A DNA stretch of 8,611 bases, from positions 1 through 8,611 of IMG/VR virus record IMGVR_UViG_2563366981_000001; one strand, 5' to 3'. Both the position numbers and the translations under genes were made by a program. Numbering within the stretch: position 1 is the first letter of the stretch; every line of letters begins with the position of its first letter. Of this stretch, positions 1,369 to 8,611 are shown piece by piece. A model generated the notes under the pieces. It made no database searches and was not told the DNA's origin. It saw nothing but the letters and a program-made list of their open reading frames with translations. This stretch comes from a virus (lineage: Duplodnaviria; Heunggongvirae; Uroviricota; Caudoviricetes).

Positions 1369-1444
1369 GCCGATATAGCTCAGTTGGTAGAGCAGCGCAT
1401 TCGTAATGCGAAGGTCGTAGGTTCGACTCCTATTATCGGCACCA
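1369..1444 (+). tRNA. thrW: tRNA-Thr (anticodon CGU), intact, thrW-type; integration target (attL side) for the adjacent prophage
   Basis: 76-nt sequence GCCGATATAGCTCAGTTGGTAGAGCAGCGCATTCGTAATGCGAAGGTCGTAGGTTCGACTCCTATTATCGGCACCA. Acceptor stem GCCGATA/TATCGGC pairs, anticodon loop carries CGT, T-loop GGTTCGACTCC, 3' CCA encoded. thrW is the known attB of P22/Sf6-type phages. Confidence 0.95.
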
Positions 1445-1458
1445 TTTAAATCAATAAG

Positions 1459-2622
1459 TTACACATCATTAGTACCTTCCTTATTTTTTGACTGGGACAA
1501 ATTTGGGACCGATGGGTTCAGGATCGAGTCTATTTGCCGTGCGTGTTCGGTAAGGTGATTAGGTGCAAGGTGAGCATATCGACGAACCATTTCGATAGAC
1601 TCCCAGCCTCCCATTTCCTGTAACACTGACAACGGGACTCCGGCTTGAACCAGCCAACTTGCCCAGGTGTGTCTCAAGTCGTGAAATCTGAAATCATCAA
1701 TACCAGCCCGTCTCAGCGCCGCTTTCCAGGCTGTGTTTGCGTCATACCGCATCTTCCTTACTGTTGGCGCTTTCGTTCCGTCTGGTTTGGTACAGCTTTC
1801 CTTGTACACAAATACCCAACGGTGATGATTCCCGATTTGTTTTTTCAATACGCGACATGCAGTATCATTCAGCGCAACGCCAATTGCGCGGTTTGATTTA
1901 CTCTCTTCCGGGTTTATCCATGCCACCCGGCGCTGCATATCTATTTGTTGCCATTCAAGGTTGATGATGTTCGAGCGTCTTAAACCTGTTGCCAGTGCAA
2001 ATTCAACAACAGACTTTAATGGCTCCGGACATTCATCAATCAGCCTTTGTGCTTCATGGGGCTCCAGCCAGCGGATCCGTTTATTCTTTGGTTGAGGCAC
2101 TTTAATAATTGGTGCCTTATCCAGCATTTTCCATTCACGCTCTGCGGCTCTTAGTAGGGCCTTTATAAATGAAAGATGCGTAGCCTTCGTTGCAACGGAC
2201 GCTGGTTTTGGCGTGTATTCTGGAACAGGTTTCCCTTTTTTTCTGCATGCTTCTGCCCTGAGTTTCCAGTTTTCCTCATGACGCCGGTTCGTCATTTTCT
2301 GCATTGCTGAATAAATTTTTGATTCAGTAATGTCTCTTAGTTGCATTCCTGCGAAATGTTGAAGCCAGAATCCGATCCGGCTTTTGTCATCGTCCAGTGA
2401 TTTTTTATGTGCTTTCTCTTCAAGCCACCTGACACACGCTTCCTCGAACGTTATATCAGGTATTTCACCAAGTTTGCTGACCCGCCATGCTTCAGCCTTT
2501 AGCTTGTCATGGAGTTCTGTCGCCTGCCTTTTGTCCTTTGTTCCAAGAGACTGTTTAAATCTTTTACCGTTCGGCAATGTGAAACTGGCGTACCATATTT
2601 CACCTCTGCGGAAGAGTGACAT
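1459..2622 (-). CDS. int: phage tyrosine integrase (P22/Sf6-like Int)
   Basis: 387-aa ORF; stop codon 14 bp from the tRNA 3' end and convergent with it (classic tRNA-int attL arrangement). N-terminus [22 protein letters not shown] matches recalled P22 Int; C-terminal catalytic region contains [15 protein letters not shown] ... VRRYAHL (R/H-x-x-R/Y tyrosine-recombinase motifs). Confidence 0.92.
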
Positions 2623-2849
2623 TTTCTTTCCTCTGTTATGCCATCACCCGCGCTCACCTGGACAGTATGCAGCGGAGACTGAAGAGCCGCAATGCAGGCT
2701 TGTCGTGTTGTGAGGTAAGGAGATTTATTCTTAGTGGGATCTTTGCGTGTTGCCTGAAGACGCCCTGTGCGTATCCAGTTAATGGCAGTCGGTCTGGATA
2801 TCTTGAGAAAATGACAGGCCTCATCGAGTGTGAGGCTGTATGGCTCCAT
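2499..2849 (-). CDS. xis: excisionase (P22-like Xis)
   Basis: 116-aa reading frame starting at the internal ATG (complement of 2847-2849) of the 144-aa track ORF: [40 protein letters not shown]..., which matches recalled P22 Xis. Lies immediately upstream of int and overlaps its 5' end (2499-2622). Confidence 0.78.
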
Positions 2850-3154
2850 TATTTCACCTCTTGCTGTGACATTGTTGAAAAATGGATACCAGCTCGTTGC
2901 TGCCAGACGATCCAACCGAGAGTCATATCCCATGCCATGTATTCGTTATCGCCGTTTTTTGCTCTCCGACGATCTACTAAGTCACCGAAACGCTTTTCCA
3001 TGAATAATTCATAAGCTTCGCGTTCATCTGGTTCTACTTCCAGCGATAGGAGTGCGATTTCATAAGCACGGCGCTCAATATCGTCTCGCACGTCAAGGCT
3101 GCTGATACGCTCTTTAATTTCTTTAATCAGTTCTTTGTCGGTAAAAGTGATCAT
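2849..3154 (-). CDS. hypothetical acidic phage protein, translationally coupled to xis
   Basis: 101 aa from ATG (complement of 3152-3154), preceded by GGAG 6 nt upstream (CTGGAGCATA-ATG). Its stop TAA overlaps the xis ATG (TAATG at 2847-2851). The track ORF start at 3178 is a TTG inside the IS1 inverted repeat and is rejected. No family recognised. Confidence 0.55.
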   Translation of the reverse strand: MITFTDKELIKEIKERISSLDVRDDIERRAYEIALLSLEVEPDEREAYELFMEKRFGDLVDRRRAKNGDNEYMAWDMTLGWIVWQQRAGIHFSTMSQQEVK

Positions 3155-3219
3155 TATGCTCCAGGGTGATGCTGCCAACTTACTGATTTAGTGTATGATG
3201 GTGTTTTTGAGGTGCTCCA

Positions 3220-3495
3220 GTGGCTTCTGTTTCTATCAGCTGTCCCTCCTGTTCAGCTACTGACGGGGTGGTGCGTAACGGCAAAAGCACCGCCGGACAT
3301 CAGCGCTATCTCTGCTCTCACTGCCGTAAAACATGGCAACTGCAGTTCACTTACACCGCTTCTCAACCCGGTACGCACCAGAAAATCATTGATATGGCCA
3401 TGAATGGCGTTGGATGCCGGGCAACAGCCCGCATTATGGGCGTTGGCCTCAACACGATTTTACGTCACTTAAAAAACTCAGGCCGCAGTCGGTAA
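3220..3495 (+). CDS. insA: IS1 InsA (transposition inhibitor / N-terminal part of InsAB')
   Basis: 91-aa ORF (GTG start) [43 protein letters not shown]... with zinc-finger Cys pattern; matches IS1 InsA. Confidence 0.95.
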
Positions 3496-3917
3496 CCTCG
3501 CGCATACAGCCGGGCAGTGACGTCATCGTCTGCGCGGAAATGGACGAACAGTGGGGCTATGTCGGGGCTAAATCGCGCCAGCGCTGGCTGTTTTACGCGT
3601 ATGACAGTCTCCGGAAGACGGTTGTTGCGCACGTATTCGGTGAACGCACTATGGCGACGCTGGGGCGTCTTATGAGCCTGCTGTCACCCTTTGACGTGGT
3701 GATATGGATGACGGATGGCTGGCCGCTGTATGAATCCCGCCTGAAGGGAAAGCTGCACGTAATCAGCAAGCGATATACGCAGCGAATTGAGCGGCATAAC
3801 CTGAATCTGAGGCAGCACCTGGCACGGCTGGGACGGAAGTCGCTGTCGTTCTCAAAATCGGTGGAGCTGCATGACAAAGTCATCGGGCATTATCTGAACA
3901 TAAAACACTATCAATAA
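3414..3917 (+). CDS. insB: IS1 InsB frame (expressed as InsAB' transposase by -1 frameshift)
   Basis: 167-aa ORF ...[28 protein letters not shown]... in the -1 frame relative to insA; the slippery TTAAAAAAC motif is present at 3469-3477 within the overlap. Confidence 0.9.
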
Positions 3918-3955
3918 GTTGGAGTCATTACCCAGGAATTGTTTCCAGAATATGA

Positions 3956-4330
3956 GGATCGGGAACGCTTCCTGATGATGTTATTGAAATTACAAGAGAA
4001 ACATATGAGCAATTTCTTGGGCTGCATCCAGAAGGGAAAGAAATTGGCGCTGACAGTTCAGGACGGCCAGTATGGATTAATTCCCCACCCCCTTCAAAAG
4101 AGGATGAGGTGTTGACGGCTGAAATGAAAAAAATATCTTTGGTTTCTGAAGTCAATACCTACATCAATACTCATCAGTGGCCTGGCAAAGCGGCGATTGG
4201 TCGTCTGAAAAGTGAGGAACTGGCGCAATATAATTTGTGGCTGGATTATCTGGACGCACTGGAACTGGTTGATACCTCCAGTGCGCCAGATATTGAATGG
4301 CCTACGCCTCCGGCAGTTCAGGCCAGATGA
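3956..4330 (+). pseudogene. tail fiber assembly protein, 5'-truncated fragment (Tfa/U-family C-terminal part)
   Basis: Open frame without stop from 3956 to TGA at 4328-4330 (ATG-initiated part 4109..4330), ending ...LWLDYLDALELVDTSSAPDIEWPTPPAVQAR. The DTS(S/T)APD(I/V)xWP C-terminal signature is that of lambda Tfa / Mu U-type chaperones. No plausible N-terminus; the frame begins 24 bp from the IS1 right end. Confidence 0.5.
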
Positions 4331-4904
4331 CATCCGGCGCGGTGCTGGTATCTGTTGCCGTCACCGCGTCAATGTAATCCAGCACAGCGTTAAGTCGGGT
4401 GTTTTCTGTCTGCGTCAGCTTCCGCCCGGCCTGTAATTTCAGTTGAATCAGACTGATGGAAGCCATTGCAGCATCAATCAGCGACTGGCGCTGTGCTTCT
4501 GCCGCTTCTACTGCGGCGCTATGCTGTGCCTCAGTATCGGTCACCCATTTCTCACCATCCCATTTATCGTATGGCGTTAACGGTGCGAGAGTGGTTGTAT
4601 TTTCGGGATAGTCGCCTGGTGCTGTGATTTCTTTAGCATCTCCCGTTTCGGTGTTATAGACAATTTCACCGCGATGGTCTGGCACATATTCCCATGAGTT
4701 AAAATCTGCAGAACGGCAGATTGCATAACCAGTTTTGTATGAGCCAGGAGCATCTAAACAGGAACATGCCGGAATGCCGACACCCACAGCAAGATATTCA
4801 GTTGATGTGAAAATATATTCCCGTGTTTCACCATCATAGTTATAAACCGTAATATTTCCTGCCTGGGTGGCGATAAATTCGTTATTTAATACATCGTAAT
4901 CCAT
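4302..4904 (-). CDS. tfa: tail fiber assembly protein (Tfa; lambda Tfa / e14 TfaE-like)
   Basis: 200-aa ORF; central ...EYVPDHRGEIVYNTETGDAKEI... and C-terminal ...DTSTAPDVIWPELPEA resemble recalled lambda Tfa (VEDHRGKTVYDVASGDA...; ...RVDTSTAPDIEWP). Start ATG overlaps the stop of the upstream tail-fibre segment (TAATG at 4902-4906). Confidence 0.85.
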   Translation of the reverse strand: MDYDVLNNEFIATQAGNITVYNYDGETREYIFTSTEYLAVGVGIPACSCLDAPGSYKTGYAICRSADFNSWEYVPDHRGEIVYNTETGDAKEITAPGDYPENTTTLAPLTPYDKWDGEKWVTDTEAQHSAAVEAAEAQRQSLIDAAMASISLIQLKLQAGRKLTQTENTRLNAVLDYIDAVTATDTSTAPDVIWPELPEA

Positions 4905-5404
4905 TATGCAGCCCTCACGATATAATTAAAGGCAATGTTACGAGGACGGTTTTCGTTTGCAGTTGGAACAACTCTGGAAGCATCAAATGTTACTCGCTTT
5001 GCATAACCACCTTTAATTGAATCAGATGAAGCATCTCCGATGACGCTGGTTATAAAAACGCCAGAGTCAGAAGGATAGGTATTAAACCTGACATCTACTA
5101 ATGCACCAATTATATTTCGAATGGTATCTCCCTGTGACGAAAGCAAGCTACGGTTAGTATCAATCCCTCTTCCATCATCCCAGCCACGAATAAACTCACC
5201 GCGTAAATCAGGCAATTTATTTGTCGGGTAAACCTTTGCCAGTTCCGGGTATTCTTCAGCAGAAAAAGCCGCTCCGTTGCATTTCAGCCAGCCTGTTGGC
5301 GGAGTGGCGGAAGGCCACGGAACAGGCACGCCAACGGGTAATGCCGAACCTTCTCCCAAACCAACGTTTATGAAAATGCAGAAATAACGAGCAGATGACA
5401 TCAT
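4904..5404 (-). CDS. side tail fiber protein, C-terminal variable segment (e14 StfE-like; lacks the constant N-terminal part)
   Basis: 166-aa ORF directly upstream of and coupled to tfa, with a hix/gix-like crossover site inside its first ~20 codons and an invertase gene adjacent. This is the arrangement of the Sv'/U' half of Mu G, P1 C and e14 P invertible segments. Not a stand-alone gene. Confidence 0.7.
   Translation of the reverse strand: MMSSARYFCIFINVGLGEGSALPVGVPVPWPSATPPTGWLKCNGAAFSAEEYPELAKVYPTNKLPDLRGEFIRGWDDGRGIDTNRSLLSSQGDTIRNIIGALVDVRFNTYPSDSGVFITSVIGDASSDSIKGGYAKRVTFDASRVVPTANENRPRNIAFNYIVRAA
5351..5376. promoter_or_regulatory. candidate invertase crossover site (pix/hix/gix-like 26-bp site, 12-2-12 with AA centre)
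   Basis: TTCTCCCAAACC-AA-CGTTTATGAAAA. Both half-sites fit the recalled Hin/Gin half-site pattern TTnTCnnAAACC (right half as reverse complement TTTTCATAAACG); 18/26 identities to recalled gix TTATCCAAAACCTCGGTTTACAGGAA. It sits at the 5' end of the stf variable segment, 55 bp from pin. Confidence 0.45.
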
Positions 5405-5430
5405 TCCTGCTTTTGTCAGGGAGATCTACC

Positions 5431-5985
5431 ATGCTTATTGGCTATGTACGTGTGTCAACAAATGACCAGAACACAGATCTACAACGTAATGCGCTGAACT
5501 GTGCAGGATGCGAGCTGATTTTTGAAGACAAGATAAGCGGTACAAAGTCCGAAAGGCCGGGACTGAAAAAACTGCTCAGGACATTATCGGCAGGTGACAC
5601 TCTGGTTGTCTGGAAGCTGGATCGGCTGGGGCGTAGTATGCGGCATCTGGTCATTCTGGTTGAGGAGTTGCGCGAACGTGGCGTTAATTTTCGCAGCCTG
5701 ACGGATGCTATTGATACCAGCACACCGATGGGGCGTTTTTTCTTTCATGTGATGGGGGCCCTGGCTGAAATGGAACGAGAACTGATTGTTGAACGAACAA
5801 AAGCTGGACTGGAGGCTGCTCGCGCACAGGGACGAATTGGTGGACGTCGTCCCAAACTTACACCAGAACAATGGGCGCAGGCCGGGCGATTAATTGCATC
5901 AGGCGTTCCTCGCCAGAAGGTGGCGATCATCTATGATGTTGGTATATCGACACTGTATAAGAAGTTTCCGGTCGGAGATAAATGA
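5431..5985 (+). CDS. pin: serine DNA invertase (Pin/Gin/Hin/Cin family)
   Basis: 184 aa from ATG at 5431 (AGGGAGA 7 nt upstream): MLIGYVRVSTNDQNTDLQRNAL... with catalytic Ser in the YVRVSTNDQ motif and a C-terminal HTH (GRIGGRRPKLT...VAIIYDVGISTLYKK). Near-collinear with recalled e14 PinE. The upstream ATG at 5395 is rejected as an N-terminal extension. Confidence 0.93.
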   Translation: MLIGYVRVSTNDQNTDLQRNALNCAGCELIFEDKISGTKSERPGLKKLLRTLSAGDTLVVWKLDRLGRSMRHLVILVEELRERGVNFRSLTDAIDTSTPMGRFFFHVMGALAEMERELIVERTKAGLEAARAQGRIGGRRPKLTPEQWAQAGRLIASGVPRQKVAIIYDVGISTLYKKFPVGDK

Positions 5986-6026
5986 AACCGTAGCACGTCG
6001 TATGCAAGATCGTGCTGCGGTTTATG
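5986..6026. terminator. candidate bidirectional rho-independent terminator between convergent pin and the GIY-YIG gene
   Basis: Imperfect hairpin AACCG-t-AGCACG ... CGTGCT-g-CGGTT (5986-6022) followed by TTTAT, in the 57-bp gap between the pin stop (5985) and the stop of the convergent gene (6043). Confidence 0.35.
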
Positions 6027-6042
6027 CTTATCACTTAAAGAC

Positions 6043-6912
<870 letters not shown>

Positions 6913-6991
6913 CTAAGCCTTTGAATTTACAAGTACAAAAAAGATACTTTTCCTCATAATGTGAATTAATTTTATGTTTCGTTTGATGATT

Positions 6992-7057
6992 GGACCGGTC
7001 TCGAAAACCGGAGTAGGGGCAACTCTACCGGGGGGGCAAATCCCCCTCTCTCCGCCA
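6992..7057 (+). tRNA. tRNA-Ser(CGA) 3' fragment (serU-like; anticodon stem to CCA end); pseudo-tRNA / att-site remnant, not a functional gene
   Basis: GGACCGGTCTCGAAAACCGGAGTAGGGGCAACTCTACCGGGGGGGCAAATCCCCCTCTCTCCGCCA matches the recalled 3' two-thirds of E. coli tRNA-Ser(CGA): anticodon loop CT-CGA-AA, long variable arm, acceptor 3' strand TCTCTCC + CCA. The 5' ~24 nt (acceptor 5' strand, D-arm) are absent, and the T-loop reads GGGCAAATC rather than the expected GTTCAAATC. Confidence 0.7.
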
Positions 7058-7640
7058 CTTTATCAATGACTTATCTCCCGACTTCCCGCCTTGCTTTTCC
7101 TAAACAGAACAATCGTAGAATATTCTTGAAGGGTTAGATCGTCACTGTTTTCTGTTCGATACTGTGACATTCAGCACTTGATTCGCTATGGATCTGACAG
7201 GAAGGTTTCGAGCGAAAATCTGCAGTTATTCAGTCGTTTTCTTATCGGTCACCATTATTCTTTTAGACATTGATCCTACAAAGCTGCCGCAAAGTTGGTG
7301 GTGGGAACTGAAGTTGCGTAGAGAAGGGGTCAATACCCGGAGGCAAACATGGGCTGGCAAAAGTGTAGCGGTATTAGGCGCAGCTATTTAGCCTAGTTAT
7401 GTTTTATGAAAACTTGATATCATATAAGTGTCTTACTTATTGGCTGTAAATAAGGTTTTCTAAGGAATTGTTTCTTTAGCATCATTTGTAACTGTAACGG
7501 AATTTATAATCCTTTACTTTATTTTTACGGTATTTTTTATCACACCCTATTTTTTATGTGGTTTTTTATACTAAAGTTTGGCAAAGTGAACTTTATATGC
7601 ATATACTTCATCCTGGTTTCAGTTAAATTGGGTGGATGAT

Positions 7641-8384
7641 ATGGCAACTACATGTTCAGTTATATTGATTTTGGAGTCCTTTGATGTTTATTTCGGAAAA
7701 GAGAGTGTGTTTCTGGATAGAGGTTTATCTGTACTTGTCGACTCTAGCTATAGAGATTTTTTCCTGACATATCCTGAAAGAGTGATAGTGGCGGATTTTG
7801 GCGCTGAGTTTATTAGTCGCTATTTGAAAGCTAATAACTTAAGGGATATTTCTGATTGTAGGGAATATCCATCTTATTTAAAAATAAACTTTGCTGACTT
7901 CAGTTTAATTAAAGGATTAATTAGTTGGGCTAATCACTGTGCTGAATATATAGAAATTTTTGATGAGTCTATTGCTTTTACATGTCTCTCTGCATTTTCT
8001 TCTGAAAAACAATTTGGAGTATTTCTGTTTGGATGTTTGAAAAGCACAGGGGCTAAAGTTAAAACGATTATTCATACGGATTTATCTGCACCATGGCATC
8101 TTAAGGATATATCATCAAGATTATATCTCAGCGAAAGTTTACTAAAGAGGAAATTGAAAGAAGAGGGGGTATCATTCAGTAAGATCATACTTGATGAGAG
8201 GATGCAAATGGCTGAATATTTACTCAGCACTCGTTGTTATCCTATTAGTAAAGTAGCTAAGGTCTGTGGTTATGCCAGTGTCTCATACTTTACTTATGTA
8301 TTTAGACGTTATTTTGGTGTTTCTCCAAGTCAATACTCTCAGAGGAGTTCAGAAAGTAAAATTCTTACTCACCAGGGAATCTAA
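7641..8384 (+). CDS. AraC/XylS-family transcriptional regulator (AppY/YdeO/EnvY-like)
   Basis: 247 aa from ATG at 7641 (GGTGGA 5 nt upstream; the track's GTG at 7632 is less likely). N-terminus MATTCSVILILESF parallels recalled AppY MDYVCSVVFICQSF and YdeO MSLVCSVIFIHHAF. C-terminal double HTH: ...PWHLKDISSRLYLSESLLKRKLKEEGVSFSKIILDERMQMA...CGYASVSYFTYVFRRYFGVSPSQY. The gene and its surroundings are visibly AT-rich. Confidence 0.85.
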   Translation: MATTCSVILILESFDVYFGKESVFLDRGLSVLVDSSYRDFFLTYPERVIVADFGAEFISRYLKANNLRDISDCREYPSYLKINFADFSLIKGLISWANHCAEYIEIFDESIAFTCLSAFSSEKQFGVFLFGCLKSTGAKVKTIIHTDLSAPWHLKDISSRLYLSESLLKRKLKEEGVSFSKIILDERMQMAEYLLSTRCYPISKVAKVCGYASVSYFTYVFRRYFGVSPSQYSQRSSESKILTHQGI

Positions 8385-8388
8385 TCAT

Positions 8389-8611
8389 TGTTCTTGCCCC
8401 CTTATTTCCAGACAGGGGGTGTATCTTAAGTTAACGTTACCCGCTGACGTCGATATTCTCGCGGAGAGCGATAACCCAACGCACTGTGCGGATGGTTTTC
8501 ATTGTAATGTTCGATCGCTACTGCAAGATTATGCAATGCCGTTCTTATATTCGGTTTCGGCATGAACGCGATGTAGTCTTCCTTCATCGTTTTCACGAAC
8601 CTTTCTGCCAT
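8389..8611 (-). mobile_element. IS2-group (IS3 family) insertion sequence, right end only; continues beyond the window
   Basis: Terminal sequence TTGCCCCCTTATTTCCAGACA (8395-8415) resembles the recalled IS2 right inverted repeat (TTTGCCCCTATATTTCCAGACA); a transposase C-terminus lies immediately inside. The exact terminal base (about 8386-8392) is uncertain. Confidence 0.6.
8426..8611 (-). CDS. IS3-family (IS2-group) transposase OrfB, C-terminal 61 codons (partial; N-terminus outside window)
   Basis: ...[55 protein letters not shown] closely parallels the recalled IS2 InsD C-terminus (...AESFVKTIKRDYISIMPKP...[25 protein letters not shown]), including the conserved Glu of the DDE triad in the N-x-x-AE-x-F motif. 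The ATG at the window edge is coincidental. Confidence 0.7.

Follow-up and report, generated by a model that had tools for sequence, protein, structure and literature searches.

PatE, the product of Z0321, is an AraC-like regulator from O-island 8 (OI-8), which is prophage CP-933H, of Escherichia coli O157:H7 (PMC10877973, PMC3681947, PMC2907692). The O157 allele activates gadE, gadBC, and hdeAB-yhiD, which are unlinked core acid-resistance genes, through a cis-element extending from -132 to -45 of the hdeA promoter, and PatE raises acid survival and lowers LEE gene expression in EHEC (PMC10877973). The O157 allele has a promoter of its own, from which it is transcribed as cells enter stationary phase. 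Transcription of O157 Z0321 (patE) is approximately 6-fold RpoS-dependent (PMC2907692). Z0314 and Z0316 are tail-fibre genes of the same prophage (PMC4048457). PatE-type phage regulators are known to feed the GAD acid-resistance circuit and thereby to aid the survival of E. coli in gastric acid.

Several described regulators are comparable to PatE. The PsrA/PsrB-type regulators of EHEC (OI-50, OI-57) are prophage-encoded, AraC-like activators of gadE and hdeA that bind the same hdeA region as PatE (PMC10877973). AppY of the cryptic prophage DLP12 of E. coli K-12 is a prophage-borne AraC regulator that also feeds into acid resistance (PMC10057817). The host regulators YdeO, GadW, and GadX have the two-domain layout that is predicted for PatE and similar recognition helices, and the literature gives common target promoters for them. 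By contrast to these, patE is accessory and phage-borne, and it adjoins neither safA-ydeO nor the gad loci.

Here we describe a locus of this type in a stretch of DNA of 8,611 nucleotides, hereafter the window. In our reading, to which we assign a probability of roughly 0.88, positions 7641 to 8384 are an intact patE gene, a phage moron that encodes a YdeO/GadW/GadX/AppY-type activator of acid-resistance genes and is embedded in a serU-derived mosaic.

Organization of the locus

The window is E. coli DNA with an overall GC content of 0.46, and it contains a decayed relative of the O157:H7 prophage Sp1/CP-933H at their common proA-thrW site. The host element in the window is reduced to an integrase gene, an AlpA-like gene, IS1, tail-fibre scraps, pinE, and a GIY-YIG gene. 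In the related genomes of strains Sakai and TW14359, a matching 44-nt thrW repeat follows the IS stump, placing the attR of the prophage remnant past the end of the window. The exact arrangement of the window was absent from a collection of complete genomes, in which the best match covers 85% of it. The features are as follows.

1-1254: proA, GC 0.54
1369-1444, plus strand: thrW (tRNA-Thr CGU), attL of the prophage remnant (ARAGORN, Rfam)
1459-2622, minus strand: intact gene for a 387-aa tyrosine integrase
Between the integrase gene and pinE: AlpA-like excisionase gene, IS1, tail-fibre and tail-fibre-assembly fragments
5395-6867: right end of a pinE/GIY-YIG tailed prophage, a type that natively integrates at serU
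5395-5985, plus strand: pinE (Pfam)
6043-6867, minus strand: GIY-YIG (LEM-3-like) gene (Pfam, PHROG 5356)
6992-7057, plus strand: serU', the 3' 66 nt of tRNA-Ser(CGA) from the anticodon stem to CCA, core of a fossil attR (alignment to K-12 serU)
7058-7335, plus strand: native E. coli chromosome downstream of serU, towards yodB, 278 bp, GC 0.42
7336-7391, plus strand: right-terminal 56 bp of an IS630-family element, comprising the last 10 transposase codons and the terminal repeat (pattern scan, alignments)
7392-7483, plus strand: AT-rich spacer, 92 bp
7484-7640, plus strand: patE leader, GC 0.28
7641-8384, plus strand: patE allele with an ATG start, encoding a 247-aa AraC/XylS activator
8389-8611, minus strand: partial ISEc48 (IS3 family, IS2 group), with the terminal repeat at 8389-8414 and the transposase C terminus from 8426, running off the window

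Sp1/CP-933H has the same leader, serU fragment, IS630 stump, and ISEc48 stump, and there too patE is the final gene ahead of the thrW attR in a prophage adjoining proA-thrW. The element in the window differs from Sp1/CP-933H in that it has an intact 387-aa integrase and IS1 and lacks a cI/cro/O/P block.

The regulator as a probable allele of PatE

The encoded protein is identical at 243 of 247 amino acids (98.4%) to WP_000246059.1 of strain TW14359 and to ECs_0287 of strain Sakai, and it carries four substitutions relative to the O157 allele, namely D26E, L29S, Y37S, and H153R. Positions 5350 to 8611 are syntenic with O157:H7 at 97% nucleotide identity. In the curated Sakai annotation, the final gene of Sp1 at thrW, and its only one of AraC type, is ECs_0287 ("transcription regulator"). 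This gene is followed there by a partial ISEc48 (IS3 family), by the 44-nt repeat of the thrW 3' end that forms the Sp1 boundary, and then by the P4-like Sp2. The tail-fibre genes Z0314 and Z0316 correspond to ECs0280 and ECs0282, which gives an offset of 34 between the two numbering systems, and Z0321 is therefore ECs0287. Synteny, the presence of a single AraC gene in the prophage, and the locus-number offset together make a strong but indirect case that ECs_0287 is the published PatE. No "PatE" name was attached to the protein in a protein-cluster look-up.

The regulator is thus not an uncharacterised one; the gene is in all likelihood an allele of the published patE (Z0321/ECs_0287). An initial annotation of the window, made from the sequence alone, held that near-identity to a well-characterised core regulator in its native locus would speak against its interpretation. 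Near-identity to a characterised regulator is what we observed, but PatE is accessory and not core. The regulator itself is already known, and the finding is real but ordinary.

The ATG at 7641 is also the start annotated by RefSeq in related genomes; an alternative GTG start at 7632 would yield a protein of 250 aa. The stop codon occupies 8382-8384. Residues 161 to 238 match the Pfam models HTH_AraC (60.2 bits, cut-off 26.6) and HTH_18 (58.4 bits, cut-off 33.6), and the predicted layout consists of a YdeO/GadW-like N-terminal domain (approximately residues 1-135) followed by two C-terminal helix-turn-helix motifs (approximately residues 140-238). An N-terminal motif, MxxxCSVI, is common to the window protein, YdeO, GadW, and AppY, and both recognition helices of the window protein (SESLLKRKLK and SVSYFTYVFR) are conserved in YdeO, GadW, AppY, and GadX. 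These features bear out the description in the initial annotation of a 247-aa AraC-family protein with an AppY/YdeO-like N terminus and a C-terminal pair of helix-turn-helix motifs. The protein also belongs to PHROG 1450 (318 bits).

The homology search proposed at that stage places the protein in the YdeO/GadW/AppY group. In BLASTP comparisons, full-length identity was 34.7% to YdeO, 33.1% to GadW, and 28.4% to AppY. Matches to GadX (35%) and EnvY (39%) covered the C-terminal part only, and AdiY was 30% identical. The best NCBIfam match was the YdeO model NF007407, which aligned over the full length. Its score of 146.8 bits lies far below the equivalog cut-off of 348, and together with the 34.7% identity to K-12 YdeO this rules out that the protein is YdeO; it is YdeO-like only.

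Among solved structures, the closest is the DNA-binding domain of GadX, which is 42-43% identical in sequence and superimposes with a TM score of 0.85-0.88 and an rmsd of 1.9 A. The AF2 model of the window protein is of moderate quality, with a mean pLDDT of only 67, and of 65-71 in the N-terminal beta strands. Foldseek aligned this model over its full length with CsvR, Rns, and ToxT (E = 1e-9), but the rmsd was 13-15 A.

Composition of the leader and candidate promoter

GC content is 0.28 to 0.34 across positions 7484 to 8384, the leader (7484-7640) having 0.28 and the coding sequence (7641-8384) 0.34; it is likewise 0.28 between 7400 and 7640. By contrast, the flank of serU (7059-7335) has a GC content of 0.42. 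The drop in GC content recognized in the initial annotation is thus real, but it begins at 7336 and not at 7058. The leader had been described as AT-rich with poly-T and poly-A tracts. There are indeed four T5-T6 tracts, at 7522, 7533, 7550, and 7562 (spanning 7522-7567), but the leader has no A tract of at least 5 nt. The low GC content and the T tracts are consistent with silencing by H-NS, which is plausible here.

A candidate sigma-70-like promoter in the leader consists, by match to the consensus, of a -35 element TTGGCA at 7578-7583 and a -10 element TATACT at 7602-7607 separated by an 18-nt spacer. A purine-rich GGGTGGA is located at 7630-7636, upstream of the ATG. The number of sites returned by the promoter and terminator scan did not exceed the expectation from shuffled sequence, and such sites were used only together with conservation. 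In this case, a core of approximately 50 nt (7570-7620) is nearly invariant, even in a relative with a coding sequence that is only 84% identical.

The spacer at 7392-7483 had no match beyond patE loci in the comparisons made, and these gave no indication of its origin. In strain CH4793, an IS1 is inserted at the position equivalent to 7436.

Distribution of patE and its carriage by phages

patE together with its leader was present in 658 of 5426 complete E. coli genomes (approximately 12%), mostly in a single copy, and patE was found on three records of a plasmid collection. The isolated temperate phages ev099, mEp332, and PhiR70_1 encode a PatE protein that is 97% identical, and in all three of them patE is positioned between tfa and attP-int, in the non-essential b region. 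In strain CH4793, patE is located at the bio-proximal end of an att-lambda prophage. patE thus occurs well outside EHEC, in approximately 12% of complete E. coli genomes, as well as in free temperate phages, which makes the trait transmissible. This agrees with the earlier view of a horizontally acquired AraC regulator that is related to YdeO, GadW, and AppY and resides on prophages.

The relatives that are closer than YdeO and the other regulators compared above are all carried by phages. Proteins that are 83% and 54% identical occupy a position between the antiterminator gene Q and the holin gene of lambdoid prophages. The same slot, which differs from the prophage location of patE, is occupied in isolated lambda-like phages by a large group of 243-aa proteins that are 52% identical to the window protein and constitute a putative counterpart of the PsrA/PsrB-type regulators. 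As for AppY, its gene is located at the right end of a lambdoid prophage after tail-fibre assembly genes, similar to patE in ev099, but AppY is only 28% identical to the window protein and the flanking sequences differ.

Its carriage by viable phages, its low GC content, and its conserved candidate promoter core qualify patE as a phage moron. In being an AT-rich passenger with a candidate promoter of its own, patE resembles morons in general.

Function of the window allele and alternative interpretations

We propose that the allele in the window works in the same way as O157 PatE, that is, it would be transcribed from its own promoter in stationary phase in an RpoS-dependent manner and would activate the GAD genes. 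The mechanism is extended to the window allele because this allele retains 243 of 247 residues, both recognition helices, and the promoter core. It had been stated in the initial annotation that regulators of this type control unlinked or adjacent accessory genes. Control of unlinked genes is established for the O157 allele, in which case the targets are acid-resistance genes (PMC10877973, PMC3681947).

Alternatively, patE could be a silent relic in this strain: an unexpressed or functionally drifting passenger of a dead prophage, for example one permanently silenced by H-NS, that leaves the host unaffected. The prophage around it has decayed heavily, other lineages have knocked out patE through an IS1 in codons 4-6, and the composition of the very AT-rich leader suggests that it is a likely target of H-NS. 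Close alleles differ mostly by nonsynonymous changes, with 4-8 nonsynonymous versus 1 synonymous change clustered at residues 18-37; such an excess could reflect relaxed constraint, but these counts are tiny and the numbers are too small for interpretation. In the long term, by contrast, dN/dS is 0.17 in comparison with the 83%-identical relative. The open reading frame is intact and almost identical to an allele with a demonstrated phenotype, and the promoter core is conserved. Moreover, expression of ECs0287 is induced to a high level at the transition to stationary phase, although the prophage of the O157 allele is equally defective. We therefore regard a silent relic as improbable, and an active patE remains the preferred interpretation.

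It is still less probable that the gene is an orphan xenogeneic regulator from which adjacent cargo was removed by insertion of an IS, with a regulon located elsewhere or beyond the IS, as had been raised in the initial annotation. IS activity has clearly reshaped the locus, and IS stumps flank the cassette on both sides (IS630 at 7336-7391 and ISEc48 from 8389). The IS2-group end had been recognized correctly just past the stop codon: the ISEc48 terminal repeat, TGTTCTTGCCCCCTTATTTCCAGACA, begins at 8389, with 4 nt between it and the stop codon, is 96% identical at the nucleotide level to the end of ISEc48, and resembles the terminal repeat of IS2. The C terminus of the ISEc48 transposase, encoded on the minus strand (rve_3), is 74% identical to IS2 InsD, and the ISEc48 stump is truncated in every related locus examined. 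However, the junction between patE and ISEc48 is identical in thrW prophages, in the att-lambda prophage, and in free phages. The junction is therefore old, and no cargo travels with patE. In addition, no second gene accompanies the 83%-identical relative in its slot between Q and the holin gene, and the window matches it only over the leader and coding sequence (7484-8378), up to 6 nt before the end of the stop codon. Inspection of the DNA beyond the IS, which had been recommended, revealed in related genomes the end of the prophage (the thrW repeat) and then a separate P4-like element. Finally, the published targets of PatE are unlinked core genes (PMC10877973). A one-gene cassette, a junction that is invariant in the backgrounds examined, and known, unlinked targets thus speak against the idea of a severed cargo. 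The islet is explained, its regulon is no mystery, and there is no lost cargo to seek.

A role of PatE mainly in the control of phage late, lysis, or lysogeny genes, with an incidental effect on host acid resistance, is hardly tenable: relatives do occupy a moron slot in the late operon between Q and the holin gene, but in ev099, mEp332, and Sp1 the gene is located in the non-essential b region, beside attP or attR, the helices contacting DNA match the host GadX/GadW/YdeO group, the published regulon is made up of host genes (PMC10877973), and the gene is retained in prophages devoid of late genes.

The serU fragment and the native chromosomal flank

The initial annotation had bounded the islet by a tRNA fragment. 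There is such a fragment at 6992-7057, and it derives from serU, not from the neighbouring thrW. ARAGORN reported no intact tRNA at these positions, and an Rfam search of 6900-8611 identified no RNA family apart from a spurious plastid-UTR match on the tRNA fragment. We also considered whether the fragment is the att repeat of thrW, and rejected this: no piece of 12-48 nt from the 3' end of thrW recurs in the window. A tRNA fragment beside an island need not derive from the tRNA gene that houses the island.

The fragment and its flank (6992-7335) are identical at 334 of 344 positions (97%) to K-12 2,043,190-2,043,533. The first 278 bp (7058-7335) of what had been proposed as a xenogeneic islet are thus core DNA of E. 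coli. The segment containing the serU flank is also present in the phages ev099, mEp332, and PhiR70_1, and the module that the window has in common with lambdoid phages spans the stretch from exactly the serU fragment (6996-6998) to the end of the window.

At 7335/7336, the serU flank joins the IS630 stump. The 56 bp of this stump are 92-98% identical to the right end of elements of approximately 1160 bp that encode a transposase with HTH and DDE_3 domains. Full copies of approximately 1160 bp, named "IS630-like" in RefSeq, are found in Enterobacter, Citrobacter, Yokenella, a Klebsiella plasmid, and elsewhere. A 67-aa open reading frame at 7188-7391 was dismissed as a chance chimera; it has no Pfam match and straddles the junction between the serU flank and IS630.

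Origin of the mosaic

The mosaic consists, in this order, of the fossil serU attR, the 278-bp host flank, the IS630 stump, the single-gene cassette at 7484-8384, and the ISEc48 stump. Viable lambdoid phages and Sp1-type thrW prophages carry this module in identical form, and its left side is joined to two different phage arms, each of which also occurs at the native serU site. The prophage SerU-LTIIb (a partial record) is lambdoid, is integrated at serU, and ends in stf-tfa, a 62-nt serU fragment, and yodB. To the left of that fragment, SerU-LTIIb has a phage arm of 116 bp that shows 94-95% identity to the counterpart in ev099 and mEp332. For the other arm, the pinE/GIY-YIG end present in the window, we predicted and then found a contiguous arrangement of the GIY-YIG gene, the serU fragment, the flank, and yodB, which was present in five complete genomes with 100% coverage and 98.4% identity.

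Concerning the history of the module, we lean slightly towards one capture event at the serU locus, either through imprecise excision or through a deletion into an IS, followed by swapping of the module between unrelated phage backbones. An IS-bracketed patE cassette would once have been located downstream of serU, where a deletion may have joined the serU flank to the interior of an IS630 copy. A phage integrated at serU could then have taken up the attR, the flank, and the cassette by imprecise excision. Exchange of the module between phage backbones might have proceeded via the 340 bp of serU homology or via site-specific recombination of the serU type, so that the module would have reached phages whose present integration sites are att-lambda or thrW, including the right end of the decayed Sp1/CP-933H-like element studied here. 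We searched for the ancestral locus with chimeric queries. Neither a query combining mtfA-serU with patE, in the 5426 complete E. coli genomes, nor one combining an intact IS630-like element with patE, in complete E. coli genomes, gave a contiguous match.

In having a fossil attR and host flank beside a passenger gene in viable phages, the module is reminiscent of specialised transduction of the lambda gal/bio type and of morons. In contrast to lambda gal/bio transduction, the passenger is not a core gene of the host but an already foreign, IS-bracketed cassette. The mosaic provides a tidy and testable example of the acquisition of a moron through the capture of att-flanking DNA. Together with the IS stumps on either side of patE, the fossil serU attR yields a modest and apparently unreported account of the acquisition and movement of this gene. 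A minor feature of the serU fragment is a TT-to-GG change in the T loop, which we observed in the window only.

Disruption and allelic variation of patE

The patE gene (window 7641-8384, + strand) encodes an AraC/XylS regulator of 247 aa. In strain B-JRPT-4119 (NZ_CP106756.1), IS1A lies within patE codons 4-6, at the position equivalent to window 7651-7659, and is flanked by a 9-bp target duplication identical to window 7651-7659. The native PatE N-terminus is lost through this insertion. At least 10 other complete genomes gave the same two-piece IS1A match at the patE locus.

Comparison of window 7641-8384 with close patE alleles (loci L002, L003 and L010) identified 4-8 nonsynonymous changes versus 1 synonymous change. 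These changes cluster in N-terminal domain residues 18-37, with the addition of H153R, and the counts are too low to separate relaxed from diversifying selection. Relative to the 83% identical patE-like gene, a single-gene cassette between Q and a holin gene, dN/dS was 0.17.

Related regulators

In K-12 (566000-588500), appY follows tfaD/tfaX and so takes up, at DLP12's right end, the slot that patE occupies in the temperate phage ev099. By contrast with the initial annotation, which described EnvY as prophage-borne, envY (586147-586908) lies just beyond the annotated DLP12 boundary at 586056, and this label is therefore loose. A regulator of the same group as PatE, with 36% identity, is present at positions 4001-4714 of the Stx2k phage phiSTEC1575-Stx2k, directly upstream of tRNA genes and stx2. 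Phage regulators of this group can thus be linked to Shiga toxin genes. Overexpression of a gene named patE in E. coli Nissle 1917 (CIW80_12240) was reported to increase survival at pH 2.5 and the expression of AR2-5 genes (bioRxiv 10.1101/2025.08.01.668021).

The thrW element and its surroundings

The window's thrW element, a decayed relative of the O157:H7 prophage Sp1/CP-933H, and the adjacent tail-fibre region include:

Within 1459-5400, thrW element: intact integrase, 387 aa
Within 1459-5400, thrW element: AlpA-like excisionase (PHROG 2907)
3220-3917: IS1, adjoining truncated tail-fibre genes

Unlike Sp1, this element lacks the cI/cro/O/P block. Its exact arrangement was found in none of the complete E. 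coli genomes in the collection, the best coverage being 85%. Within window 4100-5985, tail-fibre and tail-fibre-assembly genes stand in opposite orientations beside the pinE invertase, an invertible-segment layout like that of the e14 and Mu-type host-range switches, although the tail-fibre genes are fragmentary here. An Rfam match to CssrB RNA at 5963-6019 (32 bits, below the gathering score of 76) corresponds to no more than a GC-rich hairpin at the pinE end, which is probably a terminator.

Host-derived DNA meets foreign DNA at a 56-bp remnant (window 7336-7391) of an element of the IS630 family. Because its breakpoint falls within the transposase gene, this junction stems from deletion or illegitimate recombination and not from transposition.

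The serU fragment, a non-functional tRNA relic, carries a two-base T-loop change (window 7035-7036) that is private to the window, reading GGCAAAT where K-12 serU, O157 and the phages ev099 and mEp332 have TTCAAAT.
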